Shown here piece after piece: positions 12,257 to 26,159 of a stretch of 28,919 nucleotides of DNA. Position 1 is the stretch's first letter. Each line of letters starts with the position of its first letter. Origin of the DNA: an uncultured Ruminococcus sp. (lineage in GTDB: Bacteria; Bacillota; Clostridia; Oscillospirales; Ruminococcaceae); the NCBI GenBank assembly GCA_902776945.1, contig CACYSH010000043.1:1-28919 (forward strand), in the 5' to 3' direction. The notes under the pieces are model-generated. The model was given only the letters and a program-made list of their open reading frames with translations, had not been told where the DNA came from and ran no database searches. A program made the position numbers and the translations under genes.

Positions 12257-12627
12257 AAGTGCGAAGTAAGGTCAGACACGGGATCCAGCGCCGCAGGCGC
12301 AATCAATCAAAGCTAACGGCAAATGCAAATCTCCTATAACTGAGCAGCACCGTCAACTTGCACAAAACCTGACTATCACAAGGCTTGCCCCCCGCCGTCC
12401 TCGTGAAAAGGCTTTATCTAACGATGATTATTTATGCAATTTGACAAAACACACTCATTTATAGCTCCAAAAATACGCAGAGATGAGCGTTTAAAATCAA
12501 AATCGGCAATTTCAAGAAAGACTAATAAAAACAGGCAAAGCGATAAAATCAGCAAAACGTGACGGAAACAAAGAAATTGCCGATTTTAATTTGCAAAAGA
12601 GCGAAGCGATTTTCGCAAAGAAGCTGT

Positions 12628-12666
12628 GCGGTTCTGCATTCTCTTACCGGAGCAGAACCGCATTTT
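12628..12666 (+). terminator. Rho-independent-type terminator, probably ending the ABC operon
   Basis: GCGGTTCTGC (12628-12637) pairs perfectly with GCAGAACCGC (12652-12661), followed by ATTTTG. Confidence 0.55.
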
Positions 12667-12713
12667 GCACAAATGAACTCAGTTACAAAAGCTCTTAAAA
12701 TCCTTGAAAATCA

Positions 12714-12742
12714 TTGACATTTCTGACGGTATTTGATATAAT
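12714..12742 (+). promoter_or_regulatory. Consensus housekeeping-sigma promoter facing the MoxR/VWA genes
   Basis: TTGACA lies at 12714-12719, then an exact 17-nt spacer, then TATAAT at 12737-12742. The -10 is bracketed by a perfect 8-bp inverted repeat, TTTCTGAC (12720-12727) and GTCAGAAA (12747-12754). Confidence 0.65.
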
Positions 12743-13079
12743 ATTTGTCAGAAACTATAAACGAGCGATTTTGGTTAATTGTACAGAATGCGGTTCATCT
12801 TTGCGAAAATCGGCAATTTACTTGTTTTTGTCGTGTTCTGCTGATTTCTTTGATTGTGGTTTTTTGTGGGCTTTTTCTTGAAATTGCCGATTTTAATTTT
12901 GACCGTTCAATTCTGCGTATAATATAGTTTTGCTTTGTCGTGGGCTTTGCTTTGTTGCGCCTGCGGCGCAAATGGGACTTTGCTCCTTGCATGAACGCTT
13001 TAGCGTTCATGCAAACCCCTCGCCAGCGCACGGGCGCTGGATCCCGTGTCTGCCAAACTTTGCGTTTTTCGGAGGTCTT

Positions 13080-14144
13080 ATGAATTTATCATTTACAGTT
13101 ACACAAAGTGAATTATCTGATCTGCTGCTTAATCTTTCGCCGTCACGCCCCGTTTTTATATGGGGAGCGCCGGGCATCGGCAAATCCGCTCTTGTACAGA
13201 AATTTGCCGACGATGTGGGAATGCCTTGCGTTTCACTGCTCGGCAGCCAGCTCGCGCCGGAGGATATTATCGGCATACCGCAGATAAGCGGCGACACATC
13301 GCGGTTCGTGCCGCCCAAAATGATAGCCCGCAAAGAGCCTTATGTGCTGTTTCTCGACGAGCTTAACGCCTGCTCGCAGGAGGTACAGAAAGCGTTTTAC
13401 AGCCTTATCCACGAAAAGCGTATAGGCGAATATCATCTTCCGAAGGGGAGCGTCGTTATCGGCGCGGGCAACCGTTCGCAGGACAGCGCTATCGTGAAAA
13501 CTATGTCCTCTGCGCTGATAAACCGAATGTTTCATGTTCAGCTTGTCGCCGACCCTCAGCAATGGCTTGACTGGGCTTATGACAACGACTTGCACCCGTG
13601 GGTGATCGACTACATAACTCAGCGCCCCGATCATCTTTTTTCCGAACCGCCAAAAACCGAAGAACCGTATTCCACACCGCGTTCGTGGCATATGCTCAGT
13701 GACGCGCTCAAAGAATACGGCGCGGGCGAAAGGGAAGTCCCCGAGAATATTCTGCGCGTGCTTGCTTACGGTTCGGTTTCATCGGGTCATGCGGGAATGT
13801 TTCTTGCCTTCGTGAAAAATGCCGGGAATAAATATCTGCTTAATCAGATAATCAAGGGCGACGCAAGATTTCCCTCCGACCCGAAGGACAGAGATGTGCT
13901 TTACTTTGTGTCGCAGAGCTTTCGCGCAAAGCTGCTTATGGAGCTGCCCGACGACAAGCAGAAAATGGATAAAAGTACGCAGTTTCTCACTCACCGTGCA
14001 AAGGCGCTTATCAAAGACCTGTCTCATATCAGCCTTGAACTGGCGCAAATGGTCGTTTCCTCCGATGACGGAAAGGTTCTGCCCGAATGGTTCATGGTCG
14101 AGATTGTCCGCGATCTGCCGAGACTGATAAAGAATGATAAATAA
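13080..14144 (+). CDS. MoxR/AAA_5-type AAA+ ATPase (354 aa)
   Basis: Walker A is WGAPGIGKS, Walker B is VLFLDELN, sensor-1 is VVIGAGN and the sensor-2-like block is SSALINRMF. GGAGG at 13071-13075 precedes ATG 13080. The longer ORF-track start (12930) lies inside the repeat element. Confidence 0.85.
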   Translation: MNLSFTVTQSELSDLLLNLSPSRPVFIWGAPGIGKSALVQKFADDVGMPCVSLLGSQLAPEDIIGIPQISGDTSRFVPPKMIARKEPYVLFLDELNACSQEVQKAFYSLIHEKRIGEYHLPKGSVVIGAGNRSQDSAIVKTMSSALINRMFHVQLVADPQQWLDWAYDNDLHPWVIDYITQRPDHLFSEPPKTEEPYSTPRSWHMLSDALKEYGAGEREVPENILRVLAYGSVSSGHAGMFLAFVKNAGNKYLLNQIIKGDARFPSDPKDRDVLYFVSQSFRAKLLMELPDDKQKMDKSTQFLTHRAKALIKDLSHISLELAQMVVSSDDGKVLPEWFMVEIVRDLPRLIKNDK

Positions 14145-14146
14145 CT

Positions 14147-15991
14147 ATGGCAAAGACAAAAAAAGAAAACAAGATCACCCCGAACGAAAAGCAGGTTCTC
14201 AACGGAATAGCTCATATAAATATGCACCCTCTTTTCGGGAAGCTCGGTATACGAACCGAACTGGTTGAAAAAAGCCGTCTGGGGAAGAATATTCCTGCGA
14301 AGGTATCCTCGTCGGGTATCGTTTATCTCAACAAAGACTGCGACAAGCAGCCGAAGGAATGGGCTTATATTATCGCACATTGTATGCTGCACCTTTCGTT
14401 CGGGCATTTCGACGCGGAGCGTATGCCGGGTTACTGGCAGCAGATAACCGAAAAGCAGAGGAAGTGGGTAAATAAATACGACCCTGATATTTGGAATATC
14501 GCCTGTGATATTTTCATAGCGCGGTTTCTTGCAGACATAAAATTCGGCAAAAGCGACATAGACACGACACAGCTTGCGGTTTACGGTTCTTCATCGAACG
14601 AGCTGAAAATATATGAGTATCTGGTCAATAACCATTCTCCCGTAAAATTTGATACCTTCGGGACGGCGGGCGAATTTCCCGACATGATAGGTACGGATTC
14701 GCCGCTTACATATCATTATGGTAAAAACAGGCATATCATCGACTTTGCTTATGCTCTTGCAGATTCCGTCCGTTCGGTCATTGACAGCGCGGGAGATAAG
14801 CCAAAGGGTCACAGCGATAAAAAATCGGTAATGCAAAAAGCAGCCGACTGGTTCATAAACCATTATCCGCTGCTCGGAGGACTTGCCACAGGTTTTGAGG
14901 TCATTGAAACGATCGGCAGAGCCGATCTGAACGACATTGAGGTAGCTGCCGTTGATGTTACAGTCGGCGAGATCTATGTGAATCCCGCCGCAGGGCTTAG
15001 TCTGGAAGAGTGGAAATTTGTTCTTGCTCATGAATATCTTCACGCGGGCTTGCAGCACCACGCAAGGCGCAAGGGACGAGACCCGTATCTTTGGAATATT
15101 GCCTGCGATTTCGTTATAAACGGCTGGCTTCACGAAATGCAGATAGGGATAATGCCGCAGAACGGGCTTATGTACGACGAAACGCTCAAAAATAAGTCGG
15201 CGGAAGAAATATATGATGTTTTGACCGATAATATCAGAAAAAACTCAAAGCTCGGCACTTTCAGAGGGTACGGAAAAGGCGATATTATCGACAAAGGCTG
15301 GTCGCCCGATATGGATAAGCCTACCTCGCTTGACGATTTCTGCAAAAGCGCTTTGCGGAACGGTCTTGAGTATCACACCTCGACAAACAGAGGATTTATA
15401 CCCGCCGGGCTTATCGAGGAAATAAAAGCGCTTTCCATGCCGCCCGTTCCCTGGGACGTTGAGCTTGCCAAATGGTTCGATACATGGTTCACGCCTATTG
15501 AAAAGCGCCGCACCTACGCCCGACCGAGCAGGCGGCAAAGCAGTACGCCCGATATACCCCGCCCGAGCTGGGTGCGCCCCGAGCTGCCCGAGTACAGCCG
15601 CACTTACGCGGTAATTATTGACACATCGGGTTCGATGTCGCCCGAGATGATCGGCAAAGCGCTGGGCGCTGCGGCAAGCTATTCGGTCGCAAAAGATGTT
15701 CCGTTCGTCAGAGTGGTTTTCTGCGACGCGCAGGCTTACGACATAGGCTACATTGCGCCGGAGGATATTGCGGGGCGTGTAATGGTCAAGGGCAGGGGAG
15801 GCACAGTATTGCAGCCGGCTGTCGATCTGCTTGAAAACGCGAAAGACCTTCCGAAAGACGCTCCCATACTCATAATCACCGACGCGGGGATAGAGCATGA
15901 CCTTAAAGTGCATCATGAACACGCTTTTCTCATTCCCGAAGGCGCAAGGCTCCCGTTCCGTTCGGGAGGAAAGGTGTTTTACTTCAAGTGA
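14147..15991 (+). CDS. Fusion protein: two tandem DUF2201_N-like putative zincin peptidase modules (the first degenerate) plus a C-terminal VWA-like domain (614 aa)
   Basis: Module 1 has IIAHCMLHLSFGH...DIWNIACDIFIARFL. Module 2 has VLAHEYLHAGLQHH...YLWNIACDFVINGWL (HExxH). The C-terminus has YAVIIDTSGSMS (a DxSxS MIDAS-like motif). The ATG is 2 nt after the ATPase stop. Confidence 0.8.
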   Translation: MAKTKKENKITPNEKQVLNGIAHINMHPLFGKLGIRTELVEKSRLGKNIPAKVSSSGIVYLNKDCDKQPKEWAYIIAHCMLHLSFGHFDAERMPGYWQQITEKQRKWVNKYDPDIWNIACDIFIARFLADIKFGKSDIDTTQLAVYGSSSNELKIYEYLVNNHSPVKFDTFGTAGEFPDMIGTDSPLTYHYGKNRHIIDFAYALADSVRSVIDSAGDKPKGHSDKKSVMQKAADWFINHYPLLGGLATGFEVIETIGRADLNDIEVAAVDVTVGEIYVNPAAGLSLEEWKFVLAHEYLHAGLQHHARRKGRDPYLWNIACDFVINGWLHEMQIGIMPQNGLMYDETLKNKSAEEIYDVLTDNIRKNSKLGTFRGYGKGDIIDKGWSPDMDKPTSLDDFCKSALRNGLEYHTSTNRGFIPAGLIEEIKALSMPPVPWDVELAKWFDTWFTPIEKRRTYARPSRRQSSTPDIPRPSWVRPELPEYSRTYAVIIDTSGSMSPEMIGKALGAAASYSVAKDVPFVRVVFCDAQAYDIGYIAPEDIAGRVMVKGRGGTVLQPAVDLLENAKDLPKDAPILIITDAGIEHDLKVHHEHAFLIPEGARLPFRSGGKVFYFK

Positions 15992-18395
15992 GCTTTGCAA
16001 CGCGGATATTTGTTATCGCGCACTGGTCGCCCGTGAGCGCCACATAGACCTCGTTCACATCGTCAAGGAGCGTTGTAACGCTGTTTATCGCTATTCCGAG
16101 ATTTTCCGTCCGAATGACGATCTTATTATCTTTTCTTTCGAGTGTCACGGTGCAGTCAAGCCCCTGTTTATTTCTTGCGAGCCATGCTTTCCAGTCTTCA
16201 AAGTCCTTTGTATGCTCAACGTTTACCTGATTTTCGACATTTTCGGTGGAATCCCAGTTTTCTCCGTCCAGTTTCAGCAGCAGATATTCATGGTAATTCT
16301 CGCCGTTCACCTGACCGTTGGCGGAGGTGAATATGCAGAAGAACGGGCAATGCCATATCAGACGAGCTGTCGGATAGCTCATCGTGTGGAAGGATATTGT
16401 CATTTTGTCATGTATCGGTATGCCCTTTGAAGAGGAAAGTCTCGGTCCGTCAATTTCTATATTGGGAATATCTCCGGCAGGGCAGTTCTTTGTGTAGCTT
16501 ATCTCTTCGGCGATTCGCGGTATCGTTTCGGGAACGGTATCCGCAGTATCCGCGTCTACCGTGATATTATGAATTTTACAATGTTCGCCGCTAATGGAAA
16601 TATAAGTGTAACGCGCCGTATCCGGCAATGCTATAATGACCTCGAAGGTCTGTGTTTCCGTTGTTATACGCGCAAGCACATGGTCGCGATTTCTGACCGC
16701 CTCGATCTGATACTGCTGTTCCTCATGCTCGCCGTGCTTTGCGGCATTTTTACGGTCATGGTATCTTACTTCGGTCTTTCTCGCTCCCATCTCTGTGACA
16801 TTTCCGTCAAATCTTATCTTGGCGTATTCAAAATAGAACAGCTCGCGGTTGTTTTCTTCTCCCGGGTGAACCTTTCCGTCCAGCGAATCAAAGACTATCA
16901 GCATCGGAATACTTTTGTTTTCCGAAAAGCCCTCGTCGGGCAGGCTGCCCAGATGGATAGTTGTCTTTTTACTTGTGATAACGATGCCTTCCGTGCAGTT
17001 GTTGTAGACGGACTCAAAGTGCATTTCGTTTGCCGCCGTTACATTCGAGCCTGAAATACGCTCCCGCATTTTATATTCAAAGTCAAGGTCGATCATGTGT
17101 ATCATTATTCTGGCAAATGCGGGGTCGAACTGCGTTCTCATGCCTTTGACAAGCTCCTCGCGGACTATCTGCTGAGGGATAGCGCTGCGGTAGCTGCGGT
17201 TGGAGGTCATCGCGTCGTAAGCGTCGGCTACGGCAATGATACGGGCGATCTGCGGTATTTCCTCGCCCTTCAGCCCTTCGGGATAGCCTTTTCCGTCGTA
17301 CCGCTCATGATGATAATGCGCCCCTACGCTGAGATACGGGTATTCGTTGATCGTGGACAAAATCTGATTGCCGATGACAGGGTGCTGCCTTATTTCGGCA
17401 AATTCATCATCGTTCAGTCTTCCTTTTTTGTTGATGATACGGTCGGGAACTCCGATCTTTCCCACGTCGTGAAGCAGCGCCGCATAATATACCGTGTCGC
17501 ATTCCTCGGAAGAAAGTCCGTAAGCCTTTGCGATCTTTCCGGAATAATCCGCAACTCTCGCCGAATGTCCATGAGTATATTCATCTTTCGCATCGATAGC
17601 GCCTGCGAGAGCTTTTGCCGTCTGCTCGAATAACATCTGCTGCTGCGCCCGCCTGCGCTCGGCTTCGTCATATTCGTCAGCCTTTCGGGCGCGGAGAGTG
17701 TAATGATACGCCGCGATAAACAGTATAAGAAAGAACAAAGCCGAAATGACAATGACCCACCTTAAAAAAGTGTGATTATATTCGTTGACCCCTATCATTG
17801 AAATATCTGCGCCGACATAAGCAACGCATTTTCCCGATGAGTCGATAACGGGTTCGTACTTCGTAAGCAGCCAGCCGTATTTGTCATTGCTTTCTTTTAT
17901 GCCTATCCGACCGCCTTCAAGCAGCGTTGGCACATCTTTTGAAAAGCTGTCGTCAAATTCGATAATCTCGCCCAGAGAAGTGTCCGGCTCATCGGGCAAT
18001 TCGTCATATTGGTCAAGCTCTGCCGCCATAGTTTCGGTATCGAACACAACATGGCAGCCGTCTGGTTTGATCTGATAGACATACAGATACTGGATATAAG
18101 GAGTATTATTGCAGATACTTTGAAGAGTATTTTTTGTTTTTATGTATGATTCATCAATACCGTAAGTAAGCCATTGATCTATTTTATCTGCGTCTATCTG
18201 TTCGGCAGCCAGCTTTGCCGACTTGGTGAGAGTTTCTTCTCTGTACTCCCGCGTAGCCCGGTTGAATAATGCCGTGCTTGCGACAATGCTTGCGGAAAAG
18301 GCGGCAATAAGAAGAAATACTATCACAAAAATGCTTCTGAAATGCTTGGTCTTAAAAAACTTATTTTTGCCTTTCGGCGTGGATATGTTGTCCAA
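15984..18395 (-). CDS. Membrane-anchored Cache-like sensor / HD-GYP phosphodiesterase with a ~380-aa C-terminal tandem domain of unknown function
   Basis: HD-GYP motifs are HGHSARVA, LLHDVGKIGVP and HHERYDGKGYP. Two TM segments flank a Cache-like block (YLYVYQIKPDG...YGWLLTKYEPVIDSSGK..AYVGADIS). The likely start is TTG 18395, 7 nt after AGGAGG (18408-18403). The ORF-track start is GTG 18419. Confidence 0.85.
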   Translation of the reverse strand: MDNISTPKGKNKFFKTKHFRSIFVIVFLLIAAFSASIVASTALFNRATREYREETLTKSAKLAAEQIDADKIDQWLTYGIDESYIKTKNTLQSICNNTPYIQYLYVYQIKPDGCHVVFDTETMAAELDQYDELPDEPDTSLGEIIEFDDSFSKDVPTLLEGGRIGIKESNDKYGWLLTKYEPVIDSSGKCVAYVGADISMIGVNEYNHTFLRWVIVISALFFLILFIAAYHYTLRARKADEYDEAERRRAQQQMLFEQTAKALAGAIDAKDEYTHGHSARVADYSGKIAKAYGLSSEECDTVYYAALLHDVGKIGVPDRIINKKGRLNDDEFAEIRQHPVIGNQILSTINEYPYLSVGAHYHHERYDGKGYPEGLKGEEIPQIARIIAVADAYDAMTSNRSYRSAIPQQIVREELVKGMRTQFDPAFARIMIHMIDLDFEYKMRERISGSNVTAANEMHFESVYNNCTEGIVITSKKTTIHLGSLPDEGFSENKSIPMLIVFDSLDGKVHPGEENNRELFYFEYAKIRFDGNVTEMGARKTEVRYHDRKNAAKHGEHEEQQYQIEAVRNRDHVLARITTETQTFEVIIALPDTARYTYISISGEHCKIHNITVDADTADTVPETIPRIAEEISYTKNCPAGDIPNIEIDGPRLSSSKGIPIHDKMTISFHTMSYPTARLIWHCPFFCIFTSANGQVNGENYHEYLLLKLDGENWDSTENVENQVNVEHTKDFEDWKAWLARNKQGLDCTVTLERKDNKIVIRTENLGIAINSVTTLLDDVNEVYVALTGDQCAITNIRVAKLT

Positions 18396-23778: not shown

Positions 23779-25215
23779 ATGAATTGGGCTGATATAAGCG
23801 TGGTACTGACGACCGTACTTTATATGGTATCGTCGGTGCTGTTCATACGCGGCATTAAGCTGCTCGGAAAGGCAGATACCGCACGCAAGGGCAATCTTAT
23901 GTCCTCCGTTGGTATGCTGATCGCAGTTGTTACCGTACTGCTCGAAAAGAAAGTAACCGACACACTCACCGCTGCGCCGATGAAAAACGCATACATCTGG
24001 GCGATAGCGGCAATAGCTCTCGGCAGCATTATCGGCGCTGTCTGGGCTAAAAAGGTCGAAATGACAGGTATGCCGCAGTTGGTAGCGCTCTTTAACGGAT
24101 TCGGCGGTCTGTCGAGCCTGCTCGTTGCTCTCACTCAGTATATGACCGACCCCGATGTGAATGTATTCTCTTCTGTCGCTCTCGGTCTTACCATTGCGAT
24201 AGGCGCTATCGCGTTCACAGGTTCGATAGTTGCGTGGGGCAAGCTCTCGGGCAAGGCGTTCAAGAAGAACGTTTCTATCCCCGGAAAGAATGCCGTAAAC
24301 GCACTCTTTGCAATCGTTGGTCTTGCGGGCGTTGGAATGTACGCTTTGCAGATCGCGGGTATACTTGATAAGCAAATGGGAATGATCGGCATAATCACCG
24401 TTACCGCCGCATTCCTGATACTCGGCTTTACTATGGTAATCTGCATCGGCGGCGGCGATATGCCCGTTATCATCTCGCTGCTGAACGCCTTTTCGGGACT
24501 TGCGGCTGCATTTGCGGGTCTTTCGATCTCGAACTCGGTGCTTGTTGTTTCGGGATGTCTCGTTGGTACTTCGGGACTTATCCTCACGCTCATCATGTGC
24601 AAGGCGATGAACCGCACACTTTACAGCCTGCTCTTCGCCAGCGCGTCGGCAGCAAAGAAGAAGGGCGCAGCCGGCGAAGCAAAGGAGCCGCGCTCGATGT
24701 CTGTTGAGGACGCTTACCTTGTACTTGAAGCCGCAAGCTCTGTTGTATTTATTCCCGGATACGGCATGGCGGTTGCTCAGGCGCAGCACGCAGTCAAGGA
24801 GCTTTGCGATAAGTTAGAGGAAAACGGTGCGGAGGTCAGCTTTGCCATACACCCCGTTGCAGGACGTATGCCCGGTCACATGAACGTACTTCTCGCGGAG
24901 GCGAATGTTCCTTACGAGCAACTCAAGACAGCTGACGAAATGAATCCTCAGATGCCCAATACCGACGTTGCTATCGTTATCGGTGCAAACGACGTTGTAA
25001 ACCCCTCCGCAGTAAACGACGAGACTTCCCCGCTCTATGGTATGCCTATAATCAACGCATACGAAGCAAGGACTGTATTCGTACTTAAGCGCGGCAAGGG
25101 CGCGGGCTTCTCGGGAGTTGAGAATCCGCTCTTCACCAACGACAACACCGTAATGATCTACGGAGATGCGAAAAATACTGTTTCGGCGCTTGTAAGCGAG
25201 TTTGACGATAAGTGA
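23779..25215 (+). CDS. pntB: NAD(P) transhydrogenase beta subunit
   Basis: A polytopic N-terminus is followed by the dIII domain blocks IPGYGMAVAQAQH, HPVAGRMPGHMNVLLAEA, IGANDVVNP and PLYGMP. ATG 23779 lies 1 nt after the preceding stop. The ORF-track start 23710 overlaps the previous gene. Confidence 0.9.
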   Translation: MNWADISVVLTTVLYMVSSVLFIRGIKLLGKADTARKGNLMSSVGMLIAVVTVLLEKKVTDTLTAAPMKNAYIWAIAAIALGSIIGAVWAKKVEMTGMPQLVALFNGFGGLSSLLVALTQYMTDPDVNVFSSVALGLTIAIGAIAFTGSIVAWGKLSGKAFKKNVSIPGKNAVNALFAIVGLAGVGMYALQIAGILDKQMGMIGIITVTAAFLILGFTMVICIGGGDMPVIISLLNAFSGLAAAFAGLSISNSVLVVSGCLVGTSGLILTLIMCKAMNRTLYSLLFASASAAKKKGAAGEAKEPRSMSVEDAYLVLEAASSVVFIPGYGMAVAQAQHAVKELCDKLEENGAEVSFAIHPVAGRMPGHMNVLLAEANVPYEQLKTADEMNPQMPNTDVAIVIGANDVVNPSAVNDETSPLYGMPIINAYEARTVFVLKRGKGAGFSGVENPLFTNDNTVMIYGDAKNTVSALVSEFDDK

Positions 25216-26159
25216 TGAAAAGCGTTCGCGAAATCGCAGACTTTTGTGCCGATGAGGATATAAAGTTTGTAAAGCTGACATTCTGCGACGCTGTCGGGCA
25301 GCAGAAAAACGTGTCGATACCGGCGGGCGAGCTGGAAAGAGCCTTTGAGTACGGAATAGCCTTTGACGCTTCGGCGATACGCGGCTTTGAGAACGAAACG
25401 CACTCCGACCTGTTTCTCTCCCCCGAACCCGACACGCTTACTATCCTGCCCTGGCGACCCGAAAAGCAGCGAGTGGCAAGGATATTATGCTCGGTGCGCC
25501 GACCGGACGGCAGCATACACGAATGCGATACTCGCTCGCTGCTGAAAAAAGCCGTCCGTGAAGCGGAGAACGCGGGTCTGTATCTCTCGGTAGGAGCAGA
25601 AAATAAGTTCACGGTGTACGGCACGGACAGCAGACTCTTTCCTGCCGACAACGCGGCTTATTTAGACCTGGAGCCGGAGGACGGCTGCTGCGACATAAGG
25701 CGGCAGGTTTGCCTGATGCTCGAAAGCATGGGGATACCTGTAAACCGGTCTAATCACGGTCTTGCAGCCGGACAGAACAGCCTGGGCTTCGGCGGAATGA
25801 GCGTGCTGCGAGCTGCCGACACCATGATGACGACCCTCACGGCAATAAAGGTCATTGCCGCCGAAAACGAGCTTTATGCCGAGACAGGACATATTACATA
25901 CGATATTAATGTGAGCGGGGATTCCGGGAGCTTTATCCGTTCGACAGCGGGTCGGCTTGCGGAACTGAAAAGGTTCTTTGTTCCGGGCGGCGGCGCTTGG
26001 AAGGACATAACGCGAATGGACAGCAGTTCAATTAAAGTCACGGCTATCGGCGCGAATCCGTTCATTGCACTCATGCTGATAATATATGCAGGGCTTGGAA
26101 ATGATGTGGGATCAATATATAACCGATTACCGAAGCCGATAGCGGATCTTTACTCATAA
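25215..26159 (+). CDS. Truncated, catalytically degenerate glutamine-synthetase-like protein (~314 aa)
   Basis: A GS N-terminal beta-grasp pattern is present (DIKFVKLTFCDAVGQQKNVSIP..FDASAIRGFE...SDLFL.PEPDT..ILPW). Remnants of the catalytic domain carry substituted metal/substrate residues. The ATG shares one base with the pntB TGA. Confidence 0.65.
   Translation: MKSVREIADFCADEDIKFVKLTFCDAVGQQKNVSIPAGELERAFEYGIAFDASAIRGFENETHSDLFLSPEPDTLTILPWRPEKQRVARILCSVRRPDGSIHECDTRSLLKKAVREAENAGLYLSVGAENKFTVYGTDSRLFPADNAAYLDLEPEDGCCDIRRQVCLMLESMGIPVNRSNHGLAAGQNSLGFGGMSVLRAADTMMTTLTAIKVIAAENELYAETGHITYDINVSGDSGSFIRSTAGRLAELKRFFVPGGGAWKDITRMDSSSIKVTAIGANPFIALMLIIYAGLGNDVGSIYNRLPKPIADLYS

Follow-up and report, generated by a model that had tools for sequence, protein, structure and literature searches.

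In a 28,919-nucleotide metagenome contig of an uncultured Ruminococcus sp. (CACYSH010000043.1; ERZ27280290, k141_1964821), here called the window and analyzed over its whole length, two adjacent forward-strand genes (13080-15991) encode an AAA+ ATPase and a protein that joins a degenerate zincin-like peptidase module, an intact one and a VWA-like domain. The pair is a conserved two-gene unit that behaves as a horizontally mobile accessory unit. We favor, at about an even chance, the reading that the two proteins form a self-contained, horizontally mobile AAA+ module that captures and cleaves target proteins.

The ATPase and its peptidase-VWA partner

The first gene (13080-14144; ATG at 13080, TAA at 14142-14144; coordinates are on the forward strand unless stated) encodes 354 amino acids. 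Residues 24-150 align with the full length of the Pfam profile AAA_5 (PF07728; positions 1-139 of 139; 53.2 bits, E = 4e-14, gathering cut-off 22 bits), which describes dynein- and midasin-related AAA domains and into which many MoxR-like ATPases fall. The score against AAA_3 (PF07726), the family of MoxR proper, is 23.9 bits and lies under the 27-bit cut-off, so that of the 'MoxR-type/AAA_5' label given in a preliminary description of this DNA, AAA_5 stands and 'MoxR-type' is valid only in the broad sense. The bpMoxR profile also stays under its cut-off (19.3 against 27 bits). The protein matches the family phrog_1297 at 2.7e-71, and its best solved relative is an AAA module of Midasin (9e-8). 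Walker A (GAPGIGKS, residues 29-36, 13164-13187), Walker B (LFLDELN, residues 90-96, 13347-13367) and the sensor motifs, all claimed before, were found, including sensor-1 N131 and a sensor-2-like TPRSW (TPRxW), together with the arginine finger R149. K35, D93-E94, N131, R149 and the sensor-2-like motif reach a conservation of 95% or more in 68 orthologs, two phage versions included. The set of catalytic motifs is complete, and their conservation predicts a competent ATPase. The ribosome-binding site GGAGG lies at 13068-13072. A longer open reading frame (ORF) starting with TTG at 12930 was rejected as the gene because the similarity of relatives begins only at ~13071.

Only the two nucleotides CT (14145-14146) lie between the TAA and the ATG of the second gene, a spacing read correctly from the start, and the two genes are translationally coupled. 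Gene 2 (14147-15991; ATG at 14147, TGA at 15989-15991) encodes 614 amino acids arranged as a dead zincin module, a live zincin module and a VWA domain. It matches Pfam DUF2201_N (PF13203) in two stretches with 94.3 bits (E = 1.3e-26, cut-off 23.2 bits), a result that had been anticipated along with the AAA_5 match of gene 1, and it matches the family phrog_1314 at 5.9e-59. An internal alignment of residues 13-162 with residues 224-362 (26% identity, E = 6e-11) bears out the suggestion of two paralogous modules, each ending in WNIACD. Module 1, the degenerate DUF2201_N copy (residues ~12-215, 14180-14791), has HCMLH at residues 78-82 (14378-14392) and WNIACD at residues 116-121 (14492-14509), and it is without the catalytic Glu. 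Module 2, the intact copy (residues ~225-470, 14819-15556), has HEYLH at residues 295-299 (15029-15043), WNIACD at residues 316-321 (15092-15109), and also H304 and N325.

Conservation was counted over 81 diverse two-module homologs. Module 2 is kept almost throughout (H295 in 79, E296 in 76, H299 in 79, H304 in 78, N317 in 79, D321 in 80 and N325 in 78). The Glu position of module 1 holds C, A, L, G or P and in none of the 81 a Glu; its His trio is kept in part (46, 65 and 59 of 81), and the window protein retains H78, H82 and H87. The contrast between HCMLH and HEYLH with its downstream His had been noted in the window protein. Because the homologs share a Glu-less module 1 and a conserved module 2, the dead-plus-live layout is old and maintained, and not the outcome of recent decay. 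Inteins typically occupy conserved, functionally critical sites. Two homologs of 957-958 amino acids (P0125 and P0168) carry a LAGLIDADG-type intein (Intein_splicing plus LAGLIDADG_3) exactly between the C and the D of the module-2 WNxACD motif, which singles the motif out as a critical site.

The C-terminal VWA-like domain (15596-15988), first recognized by its DTSGS, has a full MIDAS (an adhesion site dependent on a metal ion) consisting of D492-x-S494-x-S496 (DTSGS, residues 492-496, 15620-15634), T553 and D579, each present in 76-79 of the 81 homologs. The site is complete, and metal binding is predicted. The full-length AlphaFold2 (AF2) model of gene 2 has a mean predicted local distance difference test score (pLDDT) of 83.8, with ~90 for each module. 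In a Foldseek search, the C-terminal third of this model matched the VWA domain of CLCA1, the MIDAS domain of MDN1/Rea1 and NorD with probability 1.0; Ro60 was also among the matches. According to the model, the C-terminal fold is clearly that of a VWA domain. A match to the Pfam DUF2201 VWA-like model (PF09967) is precomputed on close homologs of gene 2, and the HExxH region gives a profile match to the minigluzincins projannalysin (MJ1213, 3e-7) and proabylysin.

Spread, mobility and association with RtcB

A scan of genomes, one per species, returned 80 loci, 72 of them with enough upstream DNA. In 71 of the 72, the gene immediately upstream, on the same strand, is that of the ATPase, and at 68 of 80 viral contig loci a related ATPase gene is found no more than a few kb away; the two genes are thus conserved as neighbors, as the preliminary description had proposed to check. 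In the gene calls of diverse lineages, the spacing between them is -11 to +3 nucleotides. Identity to relatives is higher for the ATPase (63-94%) than for its partner (46-90%). Clustered at 50% identity, the sequences of the family form more than 9,000 groups. The two-module form was seen in Clostridia, in Betaproteobacteria (Allofranklinella, Vandammella) and in high-GC contigs where the pair stands beside a WhiB-family gene, a neighbor that suggests Actinobacteria. The pair is common in phages, lytic ones included; in the N4-like phage Moo19 it is gp37 and gp38. The phage peptidase-VWA proteins of ~380-450 amino acids consist of the live module and the VWA domain only, without the Glu-less copy. 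Many of these phage proteins are labeled 'HNH endonuclease' or 'homing endonuclease' (for example NC_070850.1 gp38 and NC_071039.1 gp144), after the label of phrog_1314. No HNH domain was seen in the peptidase-VWA family, and the label looks like an annotation error that has spread, perhaps starting from members that contain an intein or endonuclease.

DNA similarity between the window and its relatives is confined to ~13071-15991, that is, to the ribosome-binding site and the two ORFs. Copies that are 83% identical at the DNA level have wholly different flanks; they lie between a pilin gene and an AraC regulator, after a glycoside hydrolase family 53 (GH53) enzyme, or beside two large serine recombinases. 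Other copies are found near an integrase and a relaxosome gene, near genes for a Fic protein or for the toxin AbiEii, or near polymorphic-toxin genes. The 132 flanking proteins fall into 117 Pfam families, none of which was matched more than four times. Such unrelated flanks among close copies argue for an accessory mobile unit and against a housekeeping operon. No conserved housekeeping operon with a known role, a setting that would have spoken against the preliminary description, was found around the pair, and no NCBIfam equivalog matched it. The earlier idea of an inserted accessory cassette gains from the unrelated flanks and from the integrases, recombinases and toxins near some copies, but the repeat region upstream, which had been counted in its favor, lies outside the cassette and is missing from relatives. 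An empty insertion site could not be defined, the closest FtsX relatives being 69% identical and their downstream genes different.

Two copies have neighbors of separate interest. In a 90%-identical relative (L095:5040-8138, also L096 and L097), two genes for large serine recombinases stand in tandem ~1.8 kb downstream of the pair, which suggests that this copy is carried on, or beside, an integrative element. In Allofranklinella, the pair is followed by a gene for an AlkB-type 2-oxoglutarate- and Fe(II)-dependent oxygenase (L101:9876-10517) and then by grpE-dnaK-dnaJ. AlkB-type oxygenases are nucleic-acid dealkylation repair enzymes, and this adjacency may be coincidental.

RtcB is a Mn-dependent RNA ligase that acts in RNA repair. 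When the neighbors of 84 loci were clustered (7 genes upstream, 6 downstream), only the ATPase, RtcB (27 loci) and a small protein recurred beyond the peptidase-VWA partner itself; the identity of RtcB was confirmed by Pfam. Adjacency was counted in 54 species-level Clostridia loci with at least 1.5 kb of upstream DNA. RtcB lies within 700 nucleotides of the pair and on the same strand in 19 of them (19-20), upstream in 17 and downstream in 2 (RtcB loci include L046, L071, L073, L082 and L074, the last from Eubacterium ramulus ATCC 29099), and in seven loci RtcB and the ATPase gene are 4-28 nucleotides apart. One locus (L048) has a second RtcB copy directly upstream. At ~12 loci, a Lys/Arg-rich ORF of 56-71 amino acids, most often with a Cx8C...CxxC pattern, is placed between RtcB and the ATPase gene (for example L068:3196-3381, L064:8652-8837 and L001:8749-8919). 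This small Cys-rich ORF matched no Pfam family; it could be an RNA-binding fourth component. RtcB is also near the pair in the Ruminococcus loci L001-L005, and in R. flavefaciens and another Ruminococcus, RtcB, the small ORF and the pair occur in one region. No further conserved gene was found upstream of RtcB, where ORFs of ~250 amino acids are mutually unrelated. The link to RtcB is real but facultative and mostly confined to Clostridia. A full-text literature search for RtcB together with MoxR or vWA, which did not cover a 2016 RNA-repair survey, returned no description of it, and its novelty is uncertain.

Setting in the window and the upstream palindrome

The nearest protein relatives of the window are labeled Ruminococcus sp. 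or R. flavefaciens, and the genes around the pair are ordinary chromosomal ones. The 5' side has a methionyl-tRNA synthetase and a GH30 enzyme, followed by a two-component system, an ABC ATPase, an FtsX permease and the pair. On the 3' side, a convergent HD-GYP protein is followed by an AraC-type response regulator and, farther on, by glutamate dehydrogenase, transhydrogenase subunits, a fragment of a glutamine synthetase and a GH2 enzyme. Base composition over the pair is unremarkable. The HD-GYP-type (HD_5) gene occupies 15984-18395 on the reverse strand, with its stop at 15984-15986, and its 3' end overlaps that of gene 2 by 8 nucleotides. The tail-to-tail overlap reported earlier is therefore real; the HD-GYP gene is not kept beside the pair in other genomes and serves here as context only. 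The glutamine synthetase ORF (25212-26159, 315 amino acids) matches only positions 2-135 of 344 of the Gln-synt_C profile and is possibly truncated or frameshifted.

An imperfect palindrome of 780 bp (12273-13052), specific to this locus, takes up most of the 823 bp that separate the ATPase gene from the FtsX gene. Its ends are perfect 20-nucleotide inverted repeats (12273-12292 and 13033-13052), of which none is expected by chance, its inner arms are 75-83% complementary, and it contains several sub-repeats. As RNA, it would fold into a single giant hairpin (-337.8 kcal/mol, z = -14.2). Near its center and pointing at the pair lies a promoter, TTGACA-17-TATAAT (12714-12742), that agrees with the consensus at 12 of 12 positions. 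A repeat-bounded region with a consensus promoter, as the preliminary description had it, is present, but it is no part of the cassette: the internal repeat occurs in none of the 86 loci compared. In an independent assembly (L188), the same left arm was found, and the contig ends inside it.

Several interpretations of the palindrome were set aside. A repeated mobile element, or a part of the cassette, does not agree with its absence from relatives, whose similarity stops at the ribosome-binding site. The terminal 20-mer occurs once in JGI metagenomes, in an unrelated high-GC coding region, and this is a chance match. An invertible promoter is not favored, as the whole interior is itself palindromic. 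Neither Rfam, at gathering and permissive thresholds, nor a tRNA scan gave an accepted match for a noncoding RNA upstream of the pair, so that neither a Y-RNA-like leader nor a riboswitch leader is supported; a match to a plant microRNA-precursor model reflects the long hairpin only.

Proposed mechanism and competing explanations

By analogy with NorQ-NorD and Midasin, a hexameric ring of the ATPase would dock on the VWA domain of the partner, and the MIDAS metal would bind a target protein by an acidic residue. Hydrolysis of ATP would pull on or remodel the complex of partner and target, and the live zincin site (H295, E296, H299, H304 and the WNxACD helix) would cut the captured protein. The dead module would probably provide a scaffold or an extra binding surface. 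In many Clostridia, as gene neighborhood suggests, the module would be made from one operon with RtcB and the small basic Cys-rich protein; the window copy, with no RtcB beside it, would be driven from its locus-specific upstream region.

The phage form of this pair is already known. Iyer et al. (2021, Viruses, PMC7824862) noted, in jumbo phages of group 2.2, a MoxR AAA+/vWA pair with an N-terminal metallopeptidase. It belongs to the same families, phrog_1297 and phrog_1314, and shares the order of ATPase and peptidase-VWA, the HExxH and the MIDAS. It has a single zincin module, to which the window protein adds a Glu-less copy at the N-terminus. The role in virion assembly suggested for phages is not transferable to a chromosomal bacterial copy, and no RtcB link is given in PMC7824862. 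The NorQ-NorD, CbbQ-CbbO, RavA-ViaA and CoxD-CoxE pairs likewise place a MoxR-like AAA+ protein beside a VWA/MIDAS partner, and NorD is one of the structural matches described above. In NorQD, the VWA finger of NorD enters the pore of the ATPase hexamer, and ATP hydrolysis remodels a linker in the VWA protein (PMC13036017). By analogy, a VWA finger in the ATPase pore is a plausible docking mode shared with these canonical pairs. They lie in the operon of a client enzyme and have no peptidase, whereas the present pair has a conserved HExxH and no fixed client. In Midasin, the MIDAS domain hooks proteins that the motor pulls off pre-ribosomes. Midasin/Rea1 (MDN1) resembles the pair in that its AAA_5-type modules are the best solved match of gene 1 and its MIDAS domain is among the top VWA matches. 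It is, however, a eukaryotic protein, a single giant chain in which six AAA modules are fused and which has no peptidase, and the resemblance is one of domain type, not orthology. FtsH, an AAA+ domain fused to an HExxH zincin, and IetAS also let an AAA+ motor feed or control a protease; they belong to another AAA+ clade and peptidase family, and the present pair has no membrane anchor and would be coupled through a VWA adaptor. The matches of the pair to IetA and FtsH are weak and non-specific.

Given the operon link to RtcB in Clostridia, one physiological role of the module is probably recovery from RNA damage, for example by destroying or removing a protein that causes, or blocks the repair of, broken tRNA or rRNA. 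The wider proposal that the ATPase, the dead/live zincin-VWA protein, RtcB and the small Cys-rich protein together make up an undescribed ATP-dependent RNA-damage recovery system is tentative and, in our estimate, unlikely. In such a system, the MIDAS hook and the peptidase would destroy or remove the protein that caused the lesion or blocks it, for example a ribosomal protein, a ribotoxin or a stalled factor, and RtcB would reseal the RNA. The stand-alone window copy, like the copies in phages, would be this protease module without a dedicated ligase. Known RtcB operons (rtcBA, rsr-Y RNA-rtcBA and RtcB2-PrfH) also combine RtcB with accessory proteins, and Rsr/Ro60 likewise has a vWA/MIDAS domain. 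They differ in that the present pair is without TROVE and without conserved RtcA, RtcR or PrfH, and in that the window has no Y RNA or Rfam match. Accessory factors can steer RtcB to damaged ribosomes, as RtcB2-PrfH illustrates (PMC9223846).

Several observations weigh against the capture-and-cleave module and against its extension to RNA repair. RtcB is absent throughout the 28.9-kb window, is missing at about two thirds of the genome loci and is absent from 77 of 80 viral loci, being near the pair in only three; RNA repair is therefore not the core function. The peptidase activity of module 2 is only predicted, from the conservation of HExxH. The solved zincin relatives, the minigluzincins, align over only ~40 residues around this motif, and a Foldseek search of the Protein Data Bank with residues 1-470 of the AF2 model gave no significant structural match for the zincin part. 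The relative placement of the modules is not fixed in the models (predicted template modeling score, pTM, 0.44 for the whole protein and 0.50 for residues 1-470), and the latter value gives no support to a fixed pseudo-dimer of the dead and live modules, which was considered and rejected. On the pseudo-substrate or autoinhibitory arrangement that the preliminary description suggested for the duplicated modules, the models speak neither for nor against, and phage homologs do with one module. The DUF2201 VWA-like match that the preliminary description expected for gene 2 itself reached 26.3 bits (9e-6), 0.1 bit short of the 26.4-bit cut-off, while the VWA fold was upheld by Foldseek. As that description had also stated, the family lacks an experimentally defined function: no experimental or functional study of the peptidase-VWA family was found in the literature searched.

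To our knowledge, the characterized MoxR-VWA pairs are all maturation or activation factors. The present pair might likewise be a classical maturation chaperone that inserts a metal, relieves an inhibited state or processes a client by proteolysis, an explanation that we regard as unlikely. Its clients would be virion parts in phages and, in Clostridia, RtcB itself, which would make the pair an 'RtcB activase' comparable to archease or to the Rubisco activase CbbQO. RtcB is indeed the sole recurrent neighbor, NorQD is a maturation and activation pair (PMC13036017, PMC9976466), and virion assembly with peptidolytic processing was proposed for the phage pair by Iyer et al. 2021 (PMC7824862). The ATPase record of phage PA5oct also bears the note 'ESI-MS/MS', as do its 'structural protein' entries, which we take to mean detection by mass spectrometry, possibly of phage particles. 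However, most genomes have no fixed client gene next to the pair, and in N4-like phages it lies amid early/middle nucleotide-metabolism genes and not among morphogenesis genes. An intact and strongly conserved peptidase site is, moreover, foreign to the known metal-insertion pairs. A counter-defense or repair kit of mobile elements, in which the pair degrades nucleases or toxins of the host or of competitors, such as anticodon nucleases and ribotoxins, and RtcB, if present, re-ligates the cut RNA, would account for the occurrence of the pair in many phages and beside mobile-element genes and for the co-operonic RtcB in Clostridia. Phage RNA-repair enzymes are thought to oppose host RNases (PMC7824862). 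This explanation is quite improbable: it draws on genomic context alone, RtcB is scarce at the viral loci as counted above, and the window copy has ordinary chromosomal neighbors and no marker of a mobile element.

Anti-phage or anti-invader defense, with the ATPase-VWA part sensing an invader protein and the peptidase as an IetAS-like effector that either destroys the invader or causes death or arrest of the cell, is very doubtful. The cassette is mobile and patchily distributed, some copies stand beside AbiEii, Fic, polymorphic-toxin/immunity or STAND genes, and there is a weak, generic AAA similarity to IetA. In PADLOC-DB 2.0, however, gene 2 has no match and gene 1 has weak P-loop matches only, to IetA and DolB (E of at least 1.9e-4), and merely ~8 of the 132 flanking proteins match defense families. 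The frequent occurrence of the pair in lytic phages speaks against a defense role confined to the host. The published vWA-MoxR ternary conflict systems include a third component, which is a VMAP, an inactive STAND, an FtsH or a beta-propeller fused to the vWA (Kaur, Burroughs, Iyer and Aravind 2020, eLife, PMC7159879). They share with the pair the MoxR-vWA core and effectors that are sometimes fused to the vWA protein, rarely a metallopeptidase (PMC7159879); their effectors are placed C-terminal to the vWA domain, whereas the peptidase here is N-terminal and bpMoxR scores below its cut-off. No third conserved component was found among the neighbors of the 84 loci, and the pair is therefore not a ternary system of this kind. 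The conflict-system label of the preliminary description finds no backing, given the missing PADLOC match of gene 2, the few defense neighbors and the absent third component.

The window copy is a typical member of a large uncharacterized family. In the literature searched, the bacterial dead-plus-live tandem, the operon of the pair with RtcB and the small basic ORF, and the intein in WNxACD are new. Among AAA+ machines, MoxR-VWA pairs belong to the most widespread, and how they work is poorly understood. A regulated protease that links conserved live and dead peptidase copies with a motor and a MIDAS hook would have a novel design. The operon link to RtcB offers a concrete entry point to function; if true, it could extend the short list of accessory factors that direct bacterial RNA repair, and it could explain why so many phages carry the pair.

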